Assembly: GCA_041664965.1 (NCBI GenBank)
Contig: JBAYJT010000002.1
Location: forward strand, 2,877-66,876
Direction: 5' to 3'
Length of the DNA stretch: 64,000 nt
From: Gammaproteobacteria bacterium
Lineage (GTDB): Bacteria > Pseudomonadota > Gammaproteobacteria > UBA9339
Shown: positions 6,368 to 43,800 of the stretch, in pieces
Layout of the letters: every line of letters begins with the position of its first letter
How positions within the stretch are numbered: position 1 is the first letter of the stretch
Notes under the pieces: generated by a model
Database searches by the model: none
Told to the model about the DNA's origin: nothing
The model's input: only the letters and a program-made list of their open reading frames with translations
Made by a program: the position numbers and the translations under genes

Positions 6368-8266
6368 CTACTCGTCATTATGGGTTTGATCGGTTGAAAA
6401 AATCTTGATTTTCGCCTTCTGCATCCAGCCATTTATCAAAGTGGAATATTCGTATTGCCCTATTTTGCTCTTTAACCCTTCGGCAAAAGAGGAGCGTTCT
6501 GCAGATGGCACAGTTTTCGTATCGCCAAGATAAACTTTATCCAAAATTAAAACAGCCAAGTCGCCATTAGATAGCGGTAGGGAATAAGCATGCATATTCC
6601 CTACCATAGTTAATTTAAACGCGGCTTTTAGCATTTCGCTAGACAATCTCTTGTCTTGTCTAGTTACCCCAGCTGCGCTTTGCAAAGTTAAATTATATTT
6701 CTTAGCTACTTCCACTGGTTTAGAACCGCTATTTAGCGCTGCCAAAATATTTTTCGCAGTATCTTCTGCCATTTTTTGAGCTTCTTCTGAACGTAATTTT
6801 TGTTCTATAACGCTTCGCACTTCAGCCATAGACCTTACTTTAGCAGGAATGTGTTCTTTAAGACGTAAAACCACTACATCGCCCGATGCAATTTCTATTG
6901 GGTTGCTGTTGTAACCCTGCTTCAGAACAGCATCGCCAAAAGCAATTTTGAAAATCTTGGGGTTCGCAGCAAGACCAGATTTTCCGCCTGTGCGGGTAAA
7001 AGATTCTGTCTGACGAATGGGCAAATTTAGCTCTTTGGATGCGGGGAGCAAAGAATCAGAGTTTGTGTAGGTCAAATCAGTTAATTTGTCATTAGCTGCA
7101 GTAAAAAGCTCTAAAATTTTGCCTTGCATATAGGCTTTTTCAACTTTGGCTTGAACTTTGCTCAAAGGCTCTGTTTGAGCAGCATCAACTGCTAAAATTT
7201 TCACAACGTTGTAGCCTTCTTGCGTACGAAATGCTTCTGAAACTTGTCCGGTTTGCAGTTTTTCCACTTCTGGGGCAAGGTCAGATGCCATTTGGTTGTG
7301 TGCTAACTTTGTAATGCTATAATTACTTGGCATCAATGTAGCAAAATCACCACCAGAACGCGCATCTTTTGCTACGCCATCCAGTTTAGACTTAGCATTT
7401 GCAATGTCGCTTTCTTTAGAACCTTCTGGAAGTTTTATTAAAATTCGCGCCACTTGCCAACGTTTGGGCTGCGTATAAATATCGATGTTTTTTTCATAAA
7501 ATTTATTAAGGTCACTTAAACTTGGCTTCTTCACTGTTTTGGCTAACTCGCTTCCGAGCAGTTCAAGATATTCAATACTAACGCTTTCTTCCGTCATAAA
7601 TTCTTCTTGATGTTTTTTATAATACTCTTGTATTGCTGCATCAGTAATTTTAATCTGTGGTAAAAATTTATTTTGCAGAAGAACAAAATAACTAACATCG
7701 CGTTTCTCACGATCAAATGCTAAAGCTTCTTCAACCTCGCTCGGTAAAACAAAAGCGCTATCTGAGACAGCAGCATTGAGCTGGGCAGAAATCATCGTCT
7801 TACGCGTTTGGTCGAAAAAAGCTTCTTCGGAGTAAGACATGTTAGTAAGGATATTTTGAAATTTTTCGTAGGAAAACTGCCCATCTACTTGAAAATAAGG
7901 CATGTGTGTAACAATAGCACTGACTTGCTGATTACCAACATAAAGACCTAAATCTTCAAAATCACTAGATAGGACAGTATTGCGAATTAAATCTTGTAAA
8001 ACCTGCTGCTTTAAAGATTTTTGAGCTTCTTGATCGAGATAAAACTTGCTACCTTGTTTAGCGACCATGGCTTGACGAGCTCTTTCATAAGCCGCCTTAA
8101 ATTCTTGCTCTGTGATTTTTGTGCCGTCCACTTTAGCAACACCATCTTCAGCAGAATTTCCTCTAAGATAGTTTTGAATTCCCCACAATGCAAAAGTTAT
8201 ACAAATTAAGGCTACGATTACACCAGCAATAATGCCCTGAGTGCGTTCTCGCATACTTTGCAACAT
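6368..8266 (-). CDS. ppiD: periplasmic chaperone / peptidyl-prolyl isomerase PpiD
   Basis: It has the N-terminal anchor MLQSMRERTQGIIAGVIVALI... and is 632 aa. It sits in the conserved position next to hupB. Confidence 0.88.
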   Translation of the reverse strand: MLQSMRERTQGIIAGVIVALICITFALWGIQNYLRGNSAEDGVAKVDGTKITEQEFKAAYERARQAMVAKQGSKFYLDQEAQKSLKQQVLQDLIRNTVLSSDFEDLGLYVGNQQVSAIVTHMPYFQVDGQFSYEKFQNILTNMSYSEEAFFDQTRKTMISAQLNAAVSDSAFVLPSEVEEALAFDREKRDVSYFVLLQNKFLPQIKITDAAIQEYYKKHQEEFMTEESVSIEYLELLGSELAKTVKKPSLSDLNKFYEKNIDIYTQPKRWQVARILIKLPEGSKESDIANAKSKLDGVAKDARSGGDFATLMPSNYSITKLAHNQMASDLAPEVEKLQTGQVSEAFRTQEGYNVVKILAVDAAQTEPLSKVQAKVEKAYMQGKILELFTAANDKLTDLTYTNSDSLLPASKELNLPIRQTESFTRTGGKSGLAANPKIFKIAFGDAVLKQGYNSNPIEIASGDVVVLRLKEHIPAKVRSMAEVRSVIEQKLRSEEAQKMAEDTAKNILAALNSGSKPVEVAKKYNLTLQSAAGVTRQDKRLSSEMLKAAFKLTMVGNMHAYSLPLSNGDLAVLILDKVYLGDTKTVPSAERSSFAEGLKSKIGQYEYSTLINGWMQKAKIKIFSTDQTHNDE

Positions 8267-14283: not shown

Positions 14284-14337
14284 CACTTCAGAATACAACT
14301 TATTGATTTATAAAGAAAACCCATAGACATGTTTTTT
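14284..14337 (-). repeat. family-A dispersed intergenic repeat, copy 1
   Basis: The reverse complement AAAAAACATGTCTATGGGTTTTCTTTATAAATCAATAAGTTGTATTCTGAAGT matches the consensus AAAACATGTCTACnnGTTTTCTTTATAAATCAATAAGTTATAnTTTAAAGTT. Confidence 0.8.
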
Positions 14338-19631: not shown

Positions 19632-19663
19632 CTAAGAAAGCGTTAAGTTTGGTGTGATAGAAT
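19632..19663 (+). promoter_or_regulatory. PmrA-box-like motif plus -10 (CTAAGAAAGCGTTAAGTTT - N - TAGAAT)
   Basis: It is CTAA-N7-TTAA followed 11 nt later by TAGAAT, about 45 nt upstream of the ATG at 19707. A near-identical 19-mer lies upstream of the 507-aa gene. Confidence 0.45.
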
Positions 19664-19706
19664 GGCGGCAATTTAGCAACTTAACGAAAAATATGAGAAG
19701 AAGTTT

Positions 19707-36261: not shown

Positions 36262-38214
36262 CTAGATATTCTTAACTTTGGCAATCTGTTCTTGAAATAC
36301 TTTCACTTCTGCCAAAGCTTGTTTATAGAATTTGCTAATTATGACAGGGTCTTTCCCTTCCAGCAAATAATCATCTAATCGGGCACAAGCTTCTTGTGTA
36401 CGCTTCGCTCCACAATAGCTAGCCAAACCACGTATTTTATGCGTCATAACACGTAGGGCTTTAAAATCTTTGTTTTTATATATTAAAGTGAAAGATTTGA
36501 TTTTTCGCGGCAAATCTTTTTTAACGGAAGCAATTATAGTACGAATCATCTGTTCGTTATTTCCATAATTTTTACGCATCAGTACAAGGTTAATAATTTT
36601 ACCTGTAGTTGTGCTTTTCTTATCTGTCAAGACCTTGTTTGTTTTAGTTGGTTCTCTCCATCCCGAAATAAAAGTAACACAAAGATCCCTGGCTTTTTCT
36701 TCCGTTAAAGGCTTACTCAGCACAGCATTCATACCAACTTCCACACAATGTTTGGAATATCCTGCACTGCTATGAGCTGAAAGCGCAACTATCGGCACAA
36801 GATTATCTTTATTAACTTCTTGCTCACGAATACGCCTAGTTACTTCGTAGCCATCCATATCTGGCAATCCAATATCCATCAAAATAAGATCATAACTATT
36901 TGCTCTGGCTAGCTTTATAGCTTTAACACCATTGGATGCTATATCCACCGCGCATTTCATACGCCCTAAAATAATCCTACTCAGCTTCCCCATGAAAGCG
37001 TCATCTTCAACCAATAAAATCTTCCACTTTTTTCTTTTACTATTGGGCTTAGTTCTTTCCAGCACTGGCAAGTTATGAAGATTAGATATATCTCCTTGGG
37101 TTCCATGCTCTATACCAGAATCATCCTGTAATTTAGCCTCTTGCAAAGGAATCAAGCATATAAAAGCAGAACCTTTGCCCTTTTTACTCTCTACAGAAAT
37201 TGTACCGCCTAATTCTTCCACAAATTGCTTTACTATACTTAAACCTAAACCCGAACCAGGACAAGTCCCATTGTAGGAAGGAACTAGGCGCACAAAGCGC
37301 TCAAATATCTCCTCATTCTTTTCATCCGGTATCCCAATCCCTGTATCCCGCACAATGAGTCGAACGGTTATTTTATCAGCCTCTTTTTTAGCTAATTCTA
37401 CAGAAACCCTAACCTTACCCACAGAAGTAAATTTTAAAGCATTGTTAGTTAGTTCTAAGAGTATTCTCTGCAGCCTCATGCGATCCCCAAGAACATAACA
37501 TGGCAGATCCTTAGAATAACCGTATATAAATTCTAGCTTCTTCTCAGCAGCTTTAGCCCCATTCAATAAAACAATTTTATTTAGAGCATCTTTCAAATTA
37601 AATTTTTTATTAAGAAGCGGTAATTCACCAGACGTAGTTCGAATTGTATCCAAAATTTCATCCAGAAAATCAAAGAGAGTGCGGCCTGATGCTACAAGAT
37701 TATCGGCATATTCACGAGTTTTTTGCGGTTTATCAGCTTCTGCTTTAATAAGTTCTGCAAAGCCCACAATACCCGAAAGCGGAGTGCGAATATCATGACG
37801 CATGTTTTCTAAGAATTGAGATTTTGCCTCGTTGGCAGCCTCTGCTTGCTTTAATGCTTTCTCAAGCTTTTGTTCGGCAAGCTTGCGATCGGTGATGTCG
37901 AAACTTAATACTCTTATACCAACGCATTTTCCTTTATCAAAAAGAGGTTGTTTTATGGATAAATAATACCGCCCTTTAAATGGCTCTTCCTTTATAACTT
38001 TTGTTCCCACCCTCATTACTTCTTTGCAATGTTCCCAAGATGGAAGATCGATGTTTGCAGCATTTACAGAACCACGAGATATAGATGCAACCATTCGATT
38101 GTTTTGTACGAGATAGTCCCCATTAACGTCAATCACACTGTAATTAAAGTCTACTGAATCTAGGAAAAGCGAAAGTACATCGCCATTAGTTGTATCAAAA
38201 AGTTGATTGTCCAA
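36262..38214 (-). CDS. soluble hybrid sensor histidine kinase (PAS-HisKA-HATPase_c-REC-Hpt), copy 1
   Basis: It has a TTG start 6 nt after AAGGGAGGA. Motifs are the H-box NMRHDIRTPLSG, the N/G boxes DTGIGIP and GSGLGLSIV, the REC LILMDIGLPDMDG and the Hpt MTHKIRGLASYCGA. No hydrophobic segment is present. Confidence 0.88.
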   Translation of the reverse strand: MDNQLFDTTNGDVLSLFLDSVDFNYSVIDVNGDYLVQNNRMVASISRGSVNAANIDLPSWEHCKEVMRVGTKVIKEEPFKGRYYLSIKQPLFDKGKCVGIRVLSFDITDRKLAEQKLEKALKQAEAANEAKSQFLENMRHDIRTPLSGIVGFAELIKAEADKPQKTREYADNLVASGRTLFDFLDEILDTIRTTSGELPLLNKKFNLKDALNKIVLLNGAKAAEKKLEFIYGYSKDLPCYVLGDRMRLQRILLELTNNALKFTSVGKVRVSVELAKKEADKITVRLIVRDTGIGIPDEKNEEIFERFVRLVPSYNGTCPGSGLGLSIVKQFVEELGGTISVESKKGKGSAFICLIPLQEAKLQDDSGIEHGTQGDISNLHNLPVLERTKPNSKRKKWKILLVEDDAFMGKLSRIILGRMKCAVDIASNGVKAIKLARANSYDLILMDIGLPDMDGYEVTRRIREQEVNKDNLVPIVALSAHSSAGYSKHCVEVGMNAVLSKPLTEEKARDLCVTFISGWREPTKTNKVLTDKKSTTTGKIINLVLMRKNYGNNEQMIRTIIASVKKDLPRKIKSFTLIYKNKDFKALRVMTHKIRGLASYCGAKRTQEACARLDDYLLEGKDPVIISKFYKQALAEVKVFQEQIAKVKNI

Positions 38215-38253
38215 TTGATTTCCTCCCTTAAAAATTGTTTCACTTAAACAACG

Positions 38254-39462
38254 CTAGTTGCTTGGAACAACTTTTTGTGGCTGAGCAAATGTTGTACTAC
38301 CAGTAACTGCCATCTCTTGTTGCTGCGCCCTCTCCGCTTCCACAGCACGAATTAATACACTAAAGGGATCAACCTTCAGAGCACTAGGATCACTTATGTG
38401 TATTCTATATGAAATGTGAAATCCAATGAATTTTTGCGAATACTCCAGTGTAACAGGAGCAAACGATTTACTTACCTCTCCTTCGTAATTTTTTCTAGCT
38501 GCATCTATACTGGTTACTAATGTTGCTATAGCCTCCGCCCTTTTTGGTTCGTTAAATTGGATAACACATTCCCCCTTCCACACATGATTTTCTTTTGTAA
38601 AGGACATCTTTTCAGAAAAATCCGGAACCGGAGGAGAAGGCGATCGACCATTAAAAAAAGAACTTTTCCCTAGCAAACGCGGAGGACTACTTGGGACGGG
38701 GGGCCTACTAGAATTACTTCCTGATCCAGGTCTTACTGTTGGTGAAGGTGGTTTAAATTCATACCCCAAGTATAACGCACCAGGATATGGAGGATTACCC
38801 GTACCCACCAGCTTTTGTAACACATATCCGCTAGCGCTATTAAAACTAGGCGCAGGGTAGCAAACCACCTTGCCACAACATAAAAAAGCAGCACTTTCTG
38901 TAAAAAGGTATTCCTTAGCAGCTTCTACCGCTGCCCCTTTGTTTTGTTTATCTATTTGGTATCTATGAGAGTGTTCAAGAATAAGATCATCAACAATCTT
39001 CTTAAAAACTGGATCGGCACCATATAGCTTTGCTACATCTTCCTTCGCTCTAGGATATAGTTCATTATTTGTGATGTCTCGCCAATATAAAATATCTTCC
39101 TTCGATTTAAAGCCAAATGCTGGATCCAAATTATCTAACCTGCTAGCATTTTTGGCTATCCATTCATCATCTGCTTTTTTAGCTTCACCAGGCCCAACAT
39201 ATACTTCGAACAATCCCTCTCCGCTTAGCACTACTCGTACTTTCGAAATGGCCAATCGGGGCTGTCCTCCCTTTTCAATTGGCGCCAAAAGCCTATTCCT
39301 ATTAACTAGACCAATAAAATCATCAAGTTTTGCTCCAACCTGAACATTTTCACCTTTTCTATTTAGCCCCATGCTTAAAAACAAGTATAGCTCCACCGGT
39401 TGACCACCATTTTTTGTGTCAACAAAGGTAGACAAACTATCTGTAAATTTAGCTGTAAACAT
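38254..39462 (-). CDS. cyclodipeptide synthase (CDPS)-like protein with Pro/Ser-rich linker and unknown C-terminal domain (tentative)
   Basis: LFLS30MGL, E-Y185-LFT-E189-SAAF and VC-Y202-P203 match the positions and spacing of the AlbC catalytic S37, Y178, E182 and Y202(-P in XYP-type CDPSs). Residues ~228-283 are P/S-rich, followed by a ~120-aa unknown domain. Confidence 0.5.
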   Translation of the reverse strand: MFTAKFTDSLSTFVDTKNGGQPVELYLFLSMGLNRKGENVQVGAKLDDFIGLVNRNRLLAPIEKGGQPRLAISKVRVVLSGEGLFEVYVGPGEAKKADDEWIAKNASRLDNLDPAFGFKSKEDILYWRDITNNELYPRAKEDVAKLYGADPVFKKIVDDLILEHSHRYQIDKQNKGAAVEAAKEYLFTESAAFLCCGKVVCYPAPSFNSASGYVLQKLVGTGNPPYPGALYLGYEFKPPSPTVRPGSGSNSSRPPVPSSPPRLLGKSSFFNGRSPSPPVPDFSEKMSFTKENHVWKGECVIQFNEPKRAEAIATLVTSIDAARKNYEGEVSKSFAPVTLEYSQKFIGFHISYRIHISDPSALKVDPFSVLIRAVEAERAQQQEMAVTGSTTFAQPQKVVPSN

Positions 39463-39643
39463 GGTATTTATATCACTAAAGTTATACGAAATATTTTTAA
39501 ACCGTTGTTAGTCCAATCTAATTTAGGATTGAAATTAAAAGGGGAATCAATACAAAACTAGACACTTAAAACCACTCTTAGGCCTTAAGGAAAATGCCAT
39601 TATCCCTTATAATCTTATCCCTAAACAAACCTCTCACGCGCAC

Positions 39644-39706
39644 ATTATAACACAAAAACAAAGTAAGCATTAAACAGCCAAGTCTTACTCTTAAGATTAT
39701 TTTAAG
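39644..39706 (-). promoter_or_regulatory. conserved promoter region of CDPS-like gene 1: TTAA-N7-TTAA box, candidate -10 elements
   Basis: The minus strand reads cgcTTAAAATAATCTTAAGAGTaagacttggctgTTTAATgcttactttgtttttgTGTTATAATg. The same block is conserved at 43536-43597. Confidence 0.45.
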
Positions 39707-39733
39707 CGAATATTTAGCGTTGATGAAACACCT

Positions 39734-39784
39734 AAAAACATGTCTACATGTTTTCCTTATAAATCAAAAAGTTATAAAAATAAG
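39734..39784 (+). repeat. family-A repeat, copy 7
   Basis: The sequence is AAAAACATGTCTACATGTTTTCCTTATAAATCAAAAAGTTATAAAAATAAG. It contains the 8-bp inverted repeat AAAACATG/CATGTTTT. Confidence 0.8.
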
Positions 39785-39810
39785 ATCGAAAAAGGTCAAA
39801 AAATCGACTT

Positions 39811-41847
39811 CTAGATCTTTCTCACCCTCAAAATAGCTTTTTGAAAATCGCGGATTTCGACCAGACATTTTTTGTAGAGCTTTCCGATAGTCGAAAATTC
39901 ATTCCCTTCCAGCAAATAATCATCTAGTTTAGCACAAGCTCCTTGAGTACGAGCAGCTCCACAGTAGCTAGCCGAACCGCGTATTTTGTGTGTCATAATC
40001 TGTAAAGTCTTCAAATCTTTATTTTGATATGCACAAATGAAAGAATTTATTTTATTTGGTAAATCTTTTTTGATAGAAGCAAGTAAAGTCCGAACTGTCT
40101 TTTCATTATTTCCATAATTTTTACGCATCAGTGCAAGATCAATAATTTTACCTGTAACTTTGTGTGATTGGCCTCGAGGAGGTTTTTTTTCTTTTGTGGA
40201 TTCTGTCCATCCCGGAATAAAAGCACTACAAATATCTCTCGCTTTTTCTTCCGTGAAAGGCTTACTTAGCACTGCATTCATACCAACTTTCATACAATGC
40301 TGCGAGTATTCAGCGCTAGTGTGGGCCGAAAGCGCCACTATTGGCACAATATGGTCTTTCTTAACTTCTTGCTCACGGATATGCCTAGCTACCTCGTAGC
40401 CATCTATATCCGGCAATCCTATATCCATCAAAATAAGATCGTATCTATTTTCCCTAGCGAGATTTACGGCTTTAGCACCATCCACTGCTATATCTACCGC
40501 ACATTTCATACGCTCTAAAATAATTCTGCCTAGTTTCCCCATAAAAGCATCATCTTCAACTAACAAAACATTCCAATTTTTTCCTTTACGAGTTGTTTTT
40601 TCTTTTTGTTTTAGAGGCAAAATGGGCCTCATCAAAAAAGCTTTTTCTACATATCCTTCCACCTCCGCCGGCATATCAGAAGCATCCTGCAGCATGGCTT
40701 CCTGCAAAGAAATTACGCAAGTAAAAATCGAACCCTTACCCTCCTCACTCCTAACAGAAATTTCGCCCTTTAAATCCTCAAGAAATTGCTTAACAATAGT
40801 AAGCCCCAAGCCGGAACCTTGAGATATCCCTTTGAAAGATGGGGTTAAACGCGTAAAGCGTGTAAAAATGTCTTGCTTTCTCTTTTCAGAAAAACCCATG
40901 CCCGTATCTGCAACAATAAGTTTAATAGCTATGTCCGTTCCTTCTTTTTTAGCCAACTTTACGGAAATTTTAACTTCACCTTTGGAAGTAAATTTCAAAG
41001 CATTGCTCGTTAATTCTAAAAGGATCCGCTGTAACCTAACTGGATCTCCCACTATATACTCTGCTAACTTTTTATCGTAATCGTAGACAAGATTTAGTTT
41101 CTTGGTAGCTGCTTTAGCTTTCTGCAATAAAATAACTTTATTGAAAGCATCTTTCATATTAAATTTTTTCTTGAGAAGCGGAATCTCGCCTGATGTAGCT
41201 TTAATGGCATCTAGAATTTCATTGAGAAACTCAAATAATGTACGACTTGAGGCAATAAGATTATCTATGTATTCGCGCGTTTTTTCTGGTTTATCAGCCT
41301 CTGCTTTAATAAGTTCCGCAAAACCTAAAATCCCCGACAGGGGTGTACGCAAGTCATGTCGCATGTTTTCTAAAAACTGCGTTTTTGCTTCGTTGGCAGC
41401 TTCAGATTTCTTTAGAGCTTCTGCAAGCTTTTGCTCAGCAATTTTTCGGTCGGTGATGTCGATAGATACACCAAGAAGTCCAATTACATCTCCCTCGGAA
41501 TTGCGCAAGGGTTTTTTGATGCTAAAAAAATAAGTTTTAGTGCCATCAGGATTGAGATGAACTTCTTCCAATAATTCGGACTTATTGCTCTCCATAACTT
41601 TTTTGGAATTTTCCCAAGCTGGGTCAGCGCATAAATCAGAAGTGTGCTTGCCTATAAGTTCCTTAATGGAAGACAAACCTAAAATAGCCAACTCCTTGTC
41701 ATTTCCCCCAAGAAAAATCCCCTCTTTATCCACCCAATAGAAGGCAATTGGAAAATCTTGTAGCAAACTATCCATGGCCGCTTCTTTAGCTATGGACACG
41801 GCTTTTTGAGCAGTTAAATCTCGTATTGAATTGAAAGAATTTGGCAT
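39811..41847 (-). CDS. soluble hybrid sensor histidine kinase (PAS-HisKA-HATPase_c-REC-Hpt), copy 2
   Basis: It has an AAGGAG RBS. Motifs are the H-box NMRHDLRTPLSG, DTGMGFS and GSGLGLTIV, the REC LILMDIGLPDIDG and the Hpt MTHKIRGSASYCGA. No hydrophobic segment is present. It is a paralogue of 36262..38214. Confidence 0.88.
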   Translation of the reverse strand: MPNSFNSIRDLTAQKAVSIAKEAAMDSLLQDFPIAFYWVDKEGIFLGGNDKELAILGLSSIKELIGKHTSDLCADPAWENSKKVMESNKSELLEEVHLNPDGTKTYFFSIKKPLRNSEGDVIGLLGVSIDITDRKIAEQKLAEALKKSEAANEAKTQFLENMRHDLRTPLSGILGFAELIKAEADKPEKTREYIDNLIASSRTLFEFLNEILDAIKATSGEIPLLKKKFNMKDAFNKVILLQKAKAATKKLNLVYDYDKKLAEYIVGDPVRLQRILLELTSNALKFTSKGEVKISVKLAKKEGTDIAIKLIVADTGMGFSEKRKQDIFTRFTRLTPSFKGISQGSGLGLTIVKQFLEDLKGEISVRSEEGKGSIFTCVISLQEAMLQDASDMPAEVEGYVEKAFLMRPILPLKQKEKTTRKGKNWNVLLVEDDAFMGKLGRIILERMKCAVDIAVDGAKAVNLARENRYDLILMDIGLPDIDGYEVARHIREQEVKKDHIVPIVALSAHTSAEYSQHCMKVGMNAVLSKPFTEEKARDICSAFIPGWTESTKEKKPPRGQSHKVTGKIIDLALMRKNYGNNEKTVRTLLASIKKDLPNKINSFICAYQNKDLKTLQIMTHKIRGSASYCGAARTQGACAKLDDYLLEGNEFSTIGKLYKKCLVEIRDFQKAILRVRKI

Positions 41848-41891: not shown

Positions 41892-43373
41892 CTACTTGGA
41901 TGTTGGTCTAGTATTATTTTCAGCACCTCTAGTTGGAGAAGTAGGAGGAGATTTTGACTTAGATTTTTCCTGGGGAATGGGGGCGCGCCCACTTTCCTCT
42001 CTGCTAACAGCAGCAGCAGCTGCTGCAGCTGCTGCTACGGTAAAAAATAAAAACTTTCCACCACCACTAAGACAAAGTTCGGCCACAGGAGAACGAGTGC
42101 TACTAGAACTCGAGGTAACTGCGTCTTGTTGCGAGACTTCTTCAAGAACTGGGGCTAAATTACTGTTACCATGACTAGTTCCTGCACCGGATGGTGTGTC
42201 TGATAACAGTGTTGGATCGCTTGGTGGTGAAGTACTGAAACTACTGTTAACTTTACTTGCTGAAATACTTTCACTAACACTAGTAGACGGTGATTCAGCT
42301 CTTGAGGATGAAGAATTGGAAGACGTGGTGCCGGTAGAAGTACTGGAAAGTGCAGTACCTTCCTCATGACTTCGAGGAGTACTAGACCCGCTAGAAGATG
42401 GTGGTGATTGGCGACCAGATGGTAAACTATGGCTAATACCTGCTAATAATTGTTCTATCTTTAGTTTTCGCAGCTCGAGTTCTCCTGGGGTACCAACATC
42501 CAGCAATTCGTTGGTCAGTTTAAAATCCTTATAAACCTCTCCAATTCTTGCCCTTGCTATATACATTGGAGATCCTAATACCCCCCGATAAACTTCTATA
42601 GGAAATTTTTTCCATTGCTCACCATGTAAAAATATTTGAAAAGCACTCTCCTCCTGCATGTAATGTCCACAACAATCACTGATATTCTCCCAAGTTACAG
42701 TGTGATCTTCTATTTTTTTCCGCACGGCTGTCTTCTTAGCTGCTATTTTTTCGGAAAATCTACCTTTAACTTTGCCTAAGTTTTTTCTAAAACCGCTTAC
42801 ATCGTTCTGATTGGGAGTTGACCAGCTCCTAACTACGCCCAAGCACCTCTTAAATTCAGGCTCGCCAATAACATCTGACCAGTCAAGACACCATTCCTTC
42901 TCTCTACCTTGTCCTTTGGCAAAATCCTGCAATAACTTAACAACTACTTGGTTTTGTTTTTGCCATTCACTCCAATACAGTTTAGATATTCCAGCAGCTC
43001 TTATCTCAGCTGCCCCTAAGGTATCACCTTTTTCCCAGATACGTGGCATAACATTAAATCTATGTAAATGAGTGGTATTTAAAAGCGTAATGATTCCTTT
43101 TCTATTGGGATATTTCTTAAGTTCATTAATAAGAGTGTTCACAATTGCCAAAAGGGGGGTTCCAGTCTGATCCTCAGGAGTAAATTTTACCGCTAACTCA
43201 TTAGAACTGGAACTTGAAGAGGAAGAGGATGAAGTTGGTACAGAAGTCGTTGTACTTGAACTTTGAGGATTGTCGCTTTCCAATGCTGGACAAAATCCGC
43301 CCATGCTAATAGAAAGCAAAATATCTCCATCTTTTTCAAAAGGTTTTGTAGAGCTAAATTGCAACATAAACAA
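41892..43373 (-). CDS. CDPS-like protein with poly-Ser insertion and long Ser/Thr/Pro/Ala-rich C-terminal tail (tentative)
   Basis: It has LLSIS23MGG, H-Y238-MQE-E242-SAF and EV-Y262 (20 residues after the Glu, as in AlbC). A poly-Ser insertion covers aa ~31-58. Residues ~316-493 are low complexity and include an A9 run. Confidence 0.45.
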   Translation of the reverse strand: MFMLQFSSTKPFEKDGDILLSISMGGFCPALESDNPQSSSTTTSVPTSSSSSSSSSSNELAVKFTPEDQTGTPLLAIVNTLINELKKYPNRKGIITLLNTTHLHRFNVMPRIWEKGDTLGAAEIRAAGISKLYWSEWQKQNQVVVKLLQDFAKGQGREKEWCLDWSDVIGEPEFKRCLGVVRSWSTPNQNDVSGFRKNLGKVKGRFSEKIAAKKTAVRKKIEDHTVTWENISDCCGHYMQEESAFQIFLHGEQWKKFPIEVYRGVLGSPMYIARARIGEVYKDFKLTNELLDVGTPGELELRKLKIEQLLAGISHSLPSGRQSPPSSSGSSTPRSHEEGTALSSTSTGTTSSNSSSSRAESPSTSVSESISASKVNSSFSTSPPSDPTLLSDTPSGAGTSHGNSNLAPVLEEVSQQDAVTSSSSSTRSPVAELCLSGGGKFLFFTVAAAAAAAAAVSREESGRAPIPQEKSKSKSPPTSPTRGAENNTRPTSK

Positions 43374-43535
43374 ACATCACAAACAGGGTCATACGTCCAA
43401 ATTTCAATTAGCACCAAGGTTAAAAAGGGGAATCAAAACAAACCAGGTACTGAAAAATCCACTGCTAGCTTTTCAGTAAAGTGCTGTTATTTATCCCTTG
43501 GCAGCTATGTCCCTAAATGAATTTATTAATTTAGC

Positions 43536-43597
43536 ATTGTAACACAAAAATAAAACAAGCATTAAGCAGTCAGGTCTTACTCTTAAGATTATTTTAA
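43536..43597 (-). promoter_or_regulatory. conserved promoter region of CDPS-like gene 2 (TTAA-N7-TTAA box; TGTTACAAT)
   Basis: The minus strand reads ctaTTAAAATAATCTTAAGAGTaagacctgactgCTTAATgcttgttttatttttgTGTTACAATg. Confidence 0.45.
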
Positions 43598-43626
43598 TAG
43601 GATATTTAATCGTTGATGAGAGTCCT

Positions 43627-43677
43627 AAAAACATGTCTACGTGTTTTCTTTATTTTTCAATAAGTTATATTTTCTTT
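43627..43677 (+). repeat. family-A repeat, copy 8
   Basis: The sequence is AAAAACATGTCTACGTGTTTTCTTTATTTTTCAATAAGTTATATTTTCTTT. Confidence 0.8.
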
Positions 43678-43800
43678 AGGGTACAGACGCGATTAATCGC
43701 ATCTGTACTTATGATCAAAGAGTTTTCTAGGCAAAAACAAATTTTCTGGTTATTATAATCGCCTGTGCTTTTAGTTTTAATTTTTTAACATGACGATGTT

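Follow-up and report, generated by a model that had tools for sequence, protein, structure and literature searches.

The stretch at 39463–39810 lies upstream of the first of two genes for proteins resembling cyclodipeptide synthases (the CDPS-like proteins P0001 and P0002), each of which is followed by a gene for a hybrid kinase (HK1 and HK2). It belongs to a window of 64,000 nt, to which all unprefixed coordinates refer, and the genes in question are on the minus strand; coordinates with a C-number (C9, C10, C25, C49, C55 and others) refer to contigs of the same genome assembly (G000; 1.53 Mb, 92.6% complete and AT-rich). The stretch is best read, with a probability of about 0.6, as the activator-dependent promoter and long leader of a CDPS-like/hybrid-kinase operon, carrying a PmrA-type box. 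Judged by sequence comparison, the underlying module is real, under selection, and shared by all CDPS-like/hybrid-kinase modules of this lineage.

The main evidence is a comparison of seven promoters, comprising the two window copies, two on C9, one on C49 and two (L009_447 and L009_489) on L009, a metagenome contig from a close relative (KdsD 91% identical at the amino acid level). A box of the form TTAAAATA[AG]T[CA]TTAA is found at 7/7 of them, and all seven also carry the motif T[GA]TG[GT]TA[TCA]AAT. The spacing of box and -10, for which the last A of the second TTAA and the T of TATAAT serve as end points in the window copies, takes two values: exactly 41 nt in the window copies and L009_447, and exactly 51 nt in the other four promoters (both on C9, C49 and L009_489). 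Conserved columns of the alignment are confined to the box, a yTTAATGC element in the -35 region and the -10, and within the 51-nt class the box-to-(-10) interval is 41–49% identical. As the spacing is fixed while the interval has drifted, selection appears to act on the box, the -10 and the distance between them, and not on the intervening DNA. The two spacings are one helical turn apart, and this pattern of conservation is the signature of a site at which a bound protein has to face RNA polymerase. The comparison supports the view that both window operons carry the same cis-regulatory module. In a first-pass annotation of this DNA it was proposed that both operons are driven by one regulator through a selected promoter and 5' untranslated region (5' UTR); a shared, selected module is borne out, but the 5' UTR is conserved only in islands, namely its GGA motifs, one hairpin and the UUCCCCUUUU block. 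The gene order of L009 is that of the window (mla, two CDPS/kinase units, then kdsD-lptCAB-hpf).

The two window copies are unusually alike. Segments 39641–39745 and 43533–43640, described earlier as aligning almost base for base, are identical at 89 of 108 alignment columns (82%), compared with a mean of 46% and a maximum of 68% for 1000 random windows of equal length, and blastn joined 39537–39776 to 43423–43669 over 248 nt (75%, E = 1e-39). Around the box identity is 24/24, and it drops abruptly 3 nt past the -10. P0001 and P0002, in contrast, show no BLASTP similarity (best E = 0.15), and the adjoining hybrid kinases agree at only 48% of four-fold degenerate sites (31% expected by chance). 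The non-coding block is far better conserved than the neutral sites of the same duplicated unit, and the original observation that the leaders are better conserved than the genes is confirmed. Other details of that description also hold: AAAAGGGGAATCAA is exact at 39537–39550 and 43423–43436 (75–88 and 50–69 nt upstream of the starts), TTAA-N7-TTAA is present at 39691–39705 and 43583–43597, and TTTAAT/CTTAAT and TGTTATAAT/TGTTACAAT are where they had been placed. The distance of 16 nt from the box to TTTAAT/CTTAAT was right, but the ~37 nt given to the best -10 is really 41. It had been considered that the block might simply be part of a longer repeat family, and this is true of its distal ~50 nt only. 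The last ~11–15 nt of the block as first drawn (39735–39745, AAAACATGTCT) belong to a genome-wide repeat, while the sole genome match of the rest (39537–39730, ~195 nt; blastn) is the second copy. Between the box and the -10, the window copies agree at 85% of positions, but each of them agrees with L009_447 at only 68%. Selection on sites does not by itself account for the near base-for-base likeness of the window copies, which is best explained by such selection together with gene conversion between the two tandem promoters.

The core promoter has no consensus -35. The -35-region element begins 25 nt upstream of the -10 hexamer at 7/7 promoters, reading cTTAAtGc in four, cTTAAgG in one and TTAG variants in two, and is separated from the proximal half-site of the box by 21 or 31 bp. 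A sigma-70 consensus scan of the intergenic region returned no standard -35/-10 promoter, the -35 position reads TAATGC/TTAATG with at most 3/6 matches to the -35 hexamer, and the start was predicted from the -10. The missing consensus pair fits an activator-dependent extended -10 promoter. Upstream of the box is a degenerate third half-site, weakly conserved among the seven promoters (TTAAAT, ATTAGA, ATTAGG and others), in which an 11-nt tandem register is visible; we infer that it may stand in tandem register with the box. Two other candidates were rejected. The TGGC-N-TGCT of copy 1, suggestive of a sigma-54 promoter, is wrongly spaced and not kept in copy 2, and a palindrome of the LetA/GacA type is confined to three promoters, the two window copies (TCTTA-N4-TAAGA) and C9_383 (with N3 in place of N4), the other four lacking it.

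Class I activator-dependent promoters have upstream sites that work in a helical-phase-dependent manner, for example CRP sites at -61.5/-71.5 and the upstream sites of OmpR. The promoters studied here resemble them in having a site centred near -58 or -68, one turn apart, with a free interval and a weak core, a likeness offered as an analogy of architecture only. The promoter type is a known kind, and what differs is the atypical upstream position of the box and the CDPS/kinase targets.

A genome scan for TTAA-N7-TTAA, suggested in the first-pass annotation along with a search for enrichment before effector-like genes, gave a divided result. The bare pattern occurs 116 times against ~110 expected from base composition and is not enriched, so any significance of a box comes from its context, that is, a fixed distance to the -10 and recurrence at paralogues. 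When the pattern is followed by TGnTAnnnT, two sharp peaks of 12 sites each appear, one at 11 nt and the other at 22 nt, over a background of ~0.6 per offset, and these canonical sites stand upstream of open reading frames (ORFs) whose products are rich in Ser, Thr and Pro and effector-like. Scored with a matrix derived from the 31 canonical sites of the genome, the boxes of the CDPS class reach 15–23 bits, among the top sites of the genome, and about equally on both strands. Canonical boxes have the form cTTAAg-N5-cTTAAg (e.g. C10:40019–40033, C6:1436–1450 and C66:1498–1535). Two canonical sites in the window (19632–19665 and 22737–22768) have CTAAG as first half-site and are therefore missed by a strict TTAA scan. 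The genome encodes IcmL/DotI; no matrix match was found directly upstream of icmL in the Dot/Icm operon of C10 or directly upstream of the other icm genes inspected.

Exactly one OmpR/PhoB-family (Trans_reg_C) protein is encoded in the assembly, by C9:40160–40831, adjoining a gene for a membrane sensor kinase. Among NCBIfam models it scores best with QseB (239 bits) and PmrA (230 bits), neither of them reaching its equivalog cut-off; its top PDB matches are BasR/PmrA (8jo2 and 4s04, 1e-48), and the matches it has in other genomes, none above 66% identity, are all to metagenome-assembled genomes. It shares its recognition helix, LEVHIHNLR, residue for residue with Klebsiella PmrA, and Asn188, His193 and His195, whose roles as base-contacting residues of PmrA have been described (PMC3973317), are retained. 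Being the only OmpR-family regulator, and having a recognition helix identical to that of PmrA, this PmrA/QseB-type protein is the most likely candidate for binding the box. A regulator with REC and GerE domains (LetA/GacA type) was not detected in the assembly, although two GerE-type proteins exist, and there is no cognate regulator near HK1 or HK2. A TTAA-N7-TTAA box (C9:40855–40869) also lies between the pmrA-like gene and a divergent ORF of 110 aa, with a TAGAAT hexamer upstream of it and the regulator ATG 24 nt further on; a role in autoregulation or at a divergent promoter is conceivable.

PmrA boxes are known from several systems. In Klebsiella the box is CTTAAT-N5-CCTAAG and in Salmonella CTTAAG-N5-xTTAAT (PMC3973317), and PmrA–DNA structures have been solved (PMC3973317; PDB 4s04/4s05). 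The enterobacterial PmrA/BasR box of pbgP (arnB), TCTTAATATTATCCTAAGC, i.e. CTTAAT-ATTAT-CCTAAG, is likewise a direct repeat of hexamers separated by N5 (PMC3973317), but the enterobacterial regulon concerns lipid A modification, whereas the targets here are signalling modules, and overall identity of the regulators is moderate. PmrA of C. burnetii was first annotated as QseB and its site occurs in at least 68 promoters (PMC4117601); the Coxiella consensus, as quoted in bioRxiv 10.1101/679134, is cTTAA-N2-TT-N2-cTTAA directly upstream of the -10. The PmrA promoters of Legionella pneumophila and C. burnetii resemble the present ones in their tandem TTAA half-sites, 11-bp period and absence of a consensus -35. 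The setting is also alike, in that a PmrA/QseB-type regulator and kinase are found here in a small, AT-rich, Dot/Icm-carrying genome with ~24 canonical sites before effector-like genes. Three differences stand out. The targets are CDPS-like enzymes and hybrid kinases and not secretion-system or effector genes, the spacer of the box is almost invariant, and the box is not adjacent to the -10, as it is in the quoted consensus. The canonical placement of the Legionella/Coxiella type, just upstream of the -10, was not found, the box being 41 nt away, and 51 nt in other promoters.

The predicted leader contains features that may form a second layer of control. GGA occurs 17 times in the first 70 nt of the seven leaders against 4.7 expected, a count reached by none of 20000 random sets drawn from the intergenic DNA of the genome, although the paralogy of the leaders weakens the independence of this statistic and motif positions differ between subfamilies. 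In the window copies the AGGGAU motifs form a pair separated by 15–16 nt. The leader hairpin can still form in its copy-2 counterpart (43450–43476), where a double change has turned one U-A pair into G-C and two G-U pairs have become A-U, which is weak evidence that the hairpin is kept by compensatory change. AAGGGATA is found also in the partial leader of L008, the sole P0001 orthologue found (46% amino acid identity), where a hairpin lies at a comparable place but has no U-rich tail, the U-run being paired within the stem. In minimum free energy folds (RNAfold) of both copies, the UUGAUUCCCCUUUU block pairs with the second GGGA motif, and a related block, TTCTCCTTTTAATTT..AATCCTA, is present in the leader of L009_489; any function of UUGAUUCCCCUUUU is conjectural. 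Three csrA genes are present in the genome, one of them directly downstream of a gene for a single-domain response regulator (C25:7338–7922). Together with the GGA enrichment they suggest additional control by CsrA, and such control, by stabilisation or by titration of the kind proposed for CbsR12 of Coxiella, is a plausible second layer. A leader peptide was rejected, as the 17-codon ORF of leader 1 has no counterpart in leader 2. Rfam returned no family for the two intergenic regions (E up to 10, with RsmY, RsmZ, CsrB and CsrC included), only chance matches, and for the whole window only tRNAs and chance matches. CsrA-bound leaders and Rsm/CsrB sponges (the LetAS-RsmYZ-CsrA system of Legionella, CbsR12 of Coxiella) are similar in their clusters of A(N)GGA near the 5' end and in the presence of several csrA paralogues, and CbsR12 also has a PmrA-like site at its promoter. 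Here, unlike in those systems, no motif overlaps the ribosome-binding site, there is no Rfam Rsm/Csr match, the motifs lie in an mRNA leader and, in contrast to Legionella, no LetA-type regulator (REC+GerE) was detected.

On the gene strand, the proposed promoter would run from the repeat through a ~28-nt linker to a CTTAAA-N5-CTTAAG box near -58, a TTAAT -35 element and the extended -10. A phosphorylated dimer of the sole OmpR-family regulator, a presumed PmrA/QseB orthologue, would bind the box on one face of the helix and recruit RNA polymerase to an otherwise weak promoter; binding of this kind would explain why the box is kept exactly 41 or 51 nt from the -10. Transcription would yield a 5' UTR of ~175 nt, with two A(N)GGA motifs in the first 40 nt and a small hairpin and a UUCCCC block further down. 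Together these elements probably place the mRNA under CsrA-type post-transcriptional control, a step held with less confidence than the others. With the same module at all five CDPS-like paralogues, the CDPS/kinase modules would be co-regulated with the effector-type regulon, which suggests that these putative signalling modules belong to a virulence-type regulon. If the PmrA orthologue binds, the master regulator of type IVB secretion would also control a CDPS/sensor-kinase family, and the modules could be regarded as candidate circuits for small-molecule signalling in a bacterium with an obligate or facultative intracellular life. The 41/51-nt rule would provide a testable case of helical-phase-dependent upstream activation by an OmpR-family regulator, and the seven promoters form a natural mutational series.

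A number of observations weigh against the proposed promoter and leader. Phylogenetic depth is modest, as the related contig L009 is close (kdsD 91%), and leader DNA had no match among 40 other genomes of the family and class. The GGA sites are ~140 nt upstream of the ATG, with none at the ribosome-binding site, and in minimum free energy folds they fall partly in stems and partly in loops with no consistent pattern. The remaining points concern the box itself, and several of them would suit a rival reading in which the CDPS/kinase modules have a regulator of their own that uses the box as its operator, with the likeness to PmrA sites a coincidence in an AT-rich genome. The distance of 41 or 51 nt to the -10 sets it apart from the canonical sites of this genome (11 or 22 nt) and the published Coxiella sites, which adjoin the -10, and is ~50–70 degrees out of helical phase with the 11/22 classes. 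As TTAA is self-complementary, the box can be read as an inverted repeat, CTTAA-N7-TTAAG, with symmetric ends and similar scores on both strands. Its spacer, AATA[AG]T, is almost invariant in the seven promoters, unlike that of canonical sites and beyond what these need, and this could reflect a different, more specific protein or common descent. A dimeric helix-turn-helix protein on CTTAA-N7-TTAAG, or the terminal regulator of a hybrid-kinase phosphorelay, would be candidates, given two GerE-type proteins and kinases with no cognate regulator nearby. A dedicated regulator nonetheless seems unlikely, though it carries real weight: the genome has a sole winged-helix response regulator, with a recognition helix matching that of a known binder of CTTAAT-N5-CCTAAG (PMC3973317), the canonical sites of the genome have the same half-sites and 11-bp register as the box, and the further half-sites, a third one in tandem register and a fourth one in the -35 region, are what a protein that binds direct repeats would use.

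The leader has also to be considered as mainly an independent small RNA, either an Rsm/CsrB-like CsrA sponge or an attenuated leader transcript of ~70–90 nt, which would start after the extended -10 and end at the hairpin and U-rich stretch, with the CDPS-like gene expressed by read-through. Each leader has 2–4 GGA motifs within its first 50 nt, and many of these motifs are (A/C)NGGAUG-like; they would fit this reading, as would the three csrA genes and the hairpin with U-rich stretch in the two window leaders (P1 and P2; the L008 hairpin is comparable but has no U-rich tail). In Coxiella, moreover, the promoter of the CsrA-binding small RNA CbsR12 carries a PmrA-like site directly before the -10 (bioRxiv 10.1101/679134). 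The small-RNA reading is nevertheless improbable, and more doubtful than a dedicated regulator, because the stems are rich in A and U and of low stability (-9 to -11 kcal/mol; z from -1.3 to -1.9), the single terminator-like match is in one copy only, RsmY, RsmZ and CsrB are unmatched in Rfam, and no conserved second promoter lies between hairpin and start codon. A more elaborate scheme is a quorum-sensing-like loop, in which the CDPS-like product (a diketopiperazine) would be sensed by the PAS domain of the adjacent soluble kinase and the signal passed through Hpt to the PmrA-type regulator, which would bind the distal box and induce the synthase/kinase operons themselves and the effector regulon. 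The leader would titrate CsrA and, perhaps released as a short RNA at the hairpin, would connect the loop with the post-transcriptional switch to virulence and replace the apparently missing LetA-RsmYZ arm; taken as a whole, this is a long shot. There is hardly any room left for the view that the similarity is without regulatory meaning, a by-product of repeat-mediated recombination or gene conversion between tandem repeat-bearing units. The distal ~50 nt are indeed a ~250-copy repeat and the window copies do appear homogenised (85% alike against 68% to L009_447), but the box-to-(-10) part matches only the second copy in the genome, C9_383 and L009_447 keep box and promoter with a defective or absent repeat, and five further promoters, otherwise randomised in sequence, preserve both the box and the -10 at their exact distances. 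This by-product explanation is largely refuted by the seven-promoter comparison.

Table 1. Genes and sequence features of the two CDPS-like/hybrid-kinase units, in window coordinates.
Feature	Position	Strand	Details
CDPS-like gene 1 (P0001, 402 aa)	38254–39462	minus	
CDPS-like gene 2 (P0002, 493 aa)	41892–43373	minus	likely ATG 43367
Hybrid kinase HK1 (PAS)	36262–38214		follows P0001
Hybrid kinase HK2	39811–41847		follows P0002
Predicted 5' UTR, ~175 nt	39463–39637	minus	start ~39637 inferred from -10; 59% identical with copy 2
Leader block UUGAUUCCCCUUUU (AAAAGGGGAATCAA on plus)	39537–39550	minus	exact in both copies
9-bp leader hairpin, then U-rich stretch	39565–39589	minus	-9.2 kcal/mol, z -1.9
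Two AGGGAU motifs	39603–39621	minus	GGGA at 39618–39621 and 39603–39606; ~+18 and ~+33 from predicted start
Extended -10 TGTTATAAT	39644–39652	minus	exactly 41 nt past box
-35-region element TTTAATGC (yTTAATGC)	39667–39674	minus	TTAA half-site-like; from 7-promoter alignment
Tandem box CTTAAAATAATCTTAAGA = CTTAAA-ATAAT-CTTAAG	39689–39706	minus	direct repeat of two YTTAAK-type hexamers, 5 bp apart
Degenerate third half-site CTAAAT	39712–39717	minus	11 nt upstream of first TTAA
~52-nt dispersed repeat copy AAAACATGTCTAC...AAATCAAnnnGTTA...AAG	39735–39784	plus	distal edge of shared block
IHF-consensus-like site AATCAAAAAGTTA	39762–39774	plus	inside repeat; read from sequence
Copy-2 extended -10 TGTTACAAT	43536–43544	minus	41 nt past box
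Copy-2 -35-region element CTTAATGC	43559–43566	minus	
Copy-2 box ATTAAAATAATCTTAAGA = ATTAAA-ATAAT-CTTAAG	43581–43598	minus	TTAA-N7-TTAA at 43583–43597
Copy-2 repeat instance	43628–43677	plus	family member

The genome encodes five CDPS-like paralogues, the two in the window and those at C9:907–2058, C9:2363–3616 and C49:7764–9074, and in three of the modules the synthase is visibly followed by a paralogue of the same hybrid kinase. A profile of eight family members matches the CDPS structures 5ocd (8.3e-11), 5mlp (2.4e-10) and 5mlq (1.4e-5), which justifies the label CDPS-like, and by this measure the downstream genes are cyclodipeptide synthase homologues; P0001 alone matches TIGR04539 at E = 6e-5, below the cut-off. 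A database of 5.8 billion proteins contains only one or two homologues of each CDPS-like protein. Identity between P0002 and its best homologue is 43%, against 91% for KdsD in the same pair of organisms; on such comparisons the evolution of the CDPS-like genes is extremely fast next to that of housekeeping genes. The CDPS homologues in four other genera of the family are stand-alone genes coding for ~240–370 aa. No TTAAAATA[AG]T box was found in the three of their upstream regions that were read (L013, L014 and L018), and no large, kinase-sized ORF follows the gene in L013 and L014, the two loci with listed ORFs.

HK1 and HK2 share the domain order PAS-HisKA-HATPase-REC-Hpt and are 59% identical. 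In the corresponding part of L009 (5610–11479, compared with window 36262–41847), the kdsD-proximal kinase (661 aa) is a mosaic, with an HK2-like PAS N-terminus and an HK1-like C-terminus, and the synthase upstream of it is P0002-like (43%). As a P0002-like synthase is thus joined to an HK2-like PAS domain, synthase type and PAS domain seem to travel together, as would be expected of a cognate producer/sensor pair. A further hybrid kinase, 31% identical to HK1, is encoded at C55:387–3368, where the upstream gene specifies a LOG-family/MazG-like fusion protein and not a CDPS-like protein; the box is absent from this locus.

The repeat at the distal edge of the shared block reads AAAACATGTCTAC...AAATCAAAAAGTTATA... 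and is one of 253 copies in the genome, 240 of which (95%) are intergenic. The family has sharp ends and the consensus aAAAACATGTCTAca.gatTTctTTatAAATCAAt.aGTTatatttT.AAg, with ATCAA and GTT among its most conserved columns (core AAATCAAnnnGTTR). The instances at 39735–39784 and 43628–43677 match the full-length consensus aAAAACATGTCTAc..TT..TT..AAATCAA....GTT, while 39537–39730 does not. In a blastn search of the intergenic region the repeat part matched >100 loci. The window contains 12 near-matches, and copies are located at 14316, 24580, 29933, 35252, 39735, 43628, 45909, 52812 and 60869; others occur in L009 (~2740–2800 and ~7720–7775). A gene start lies on the AAAACATG side of 61% of the copies. 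The AATCAAAAAGTTA site inside the repeat is a perfect match to WATCAANNNNTTR, which we take to be the IHF consensus, and is a candidate site. The repeat stands 27–29 nt upstream of the box in 5/7 CDPS promoters, a dispersed repeat being thus able to sit at a fixed ~28 nt from a regulatory box; C9_383 has no intact repeat and L009_447 none at all, and both retain box and promoter. Between the copy-2 repeat and mlaF is a 28-nt palindrome with perfect arms (GTACAGACGCGATTAATCGCATCTGTAC, 43681–43708), and since ~20 other loci, in both orientations, carry comparable palindromes according to blastn, it appears to represent a second dispersed repeat family.

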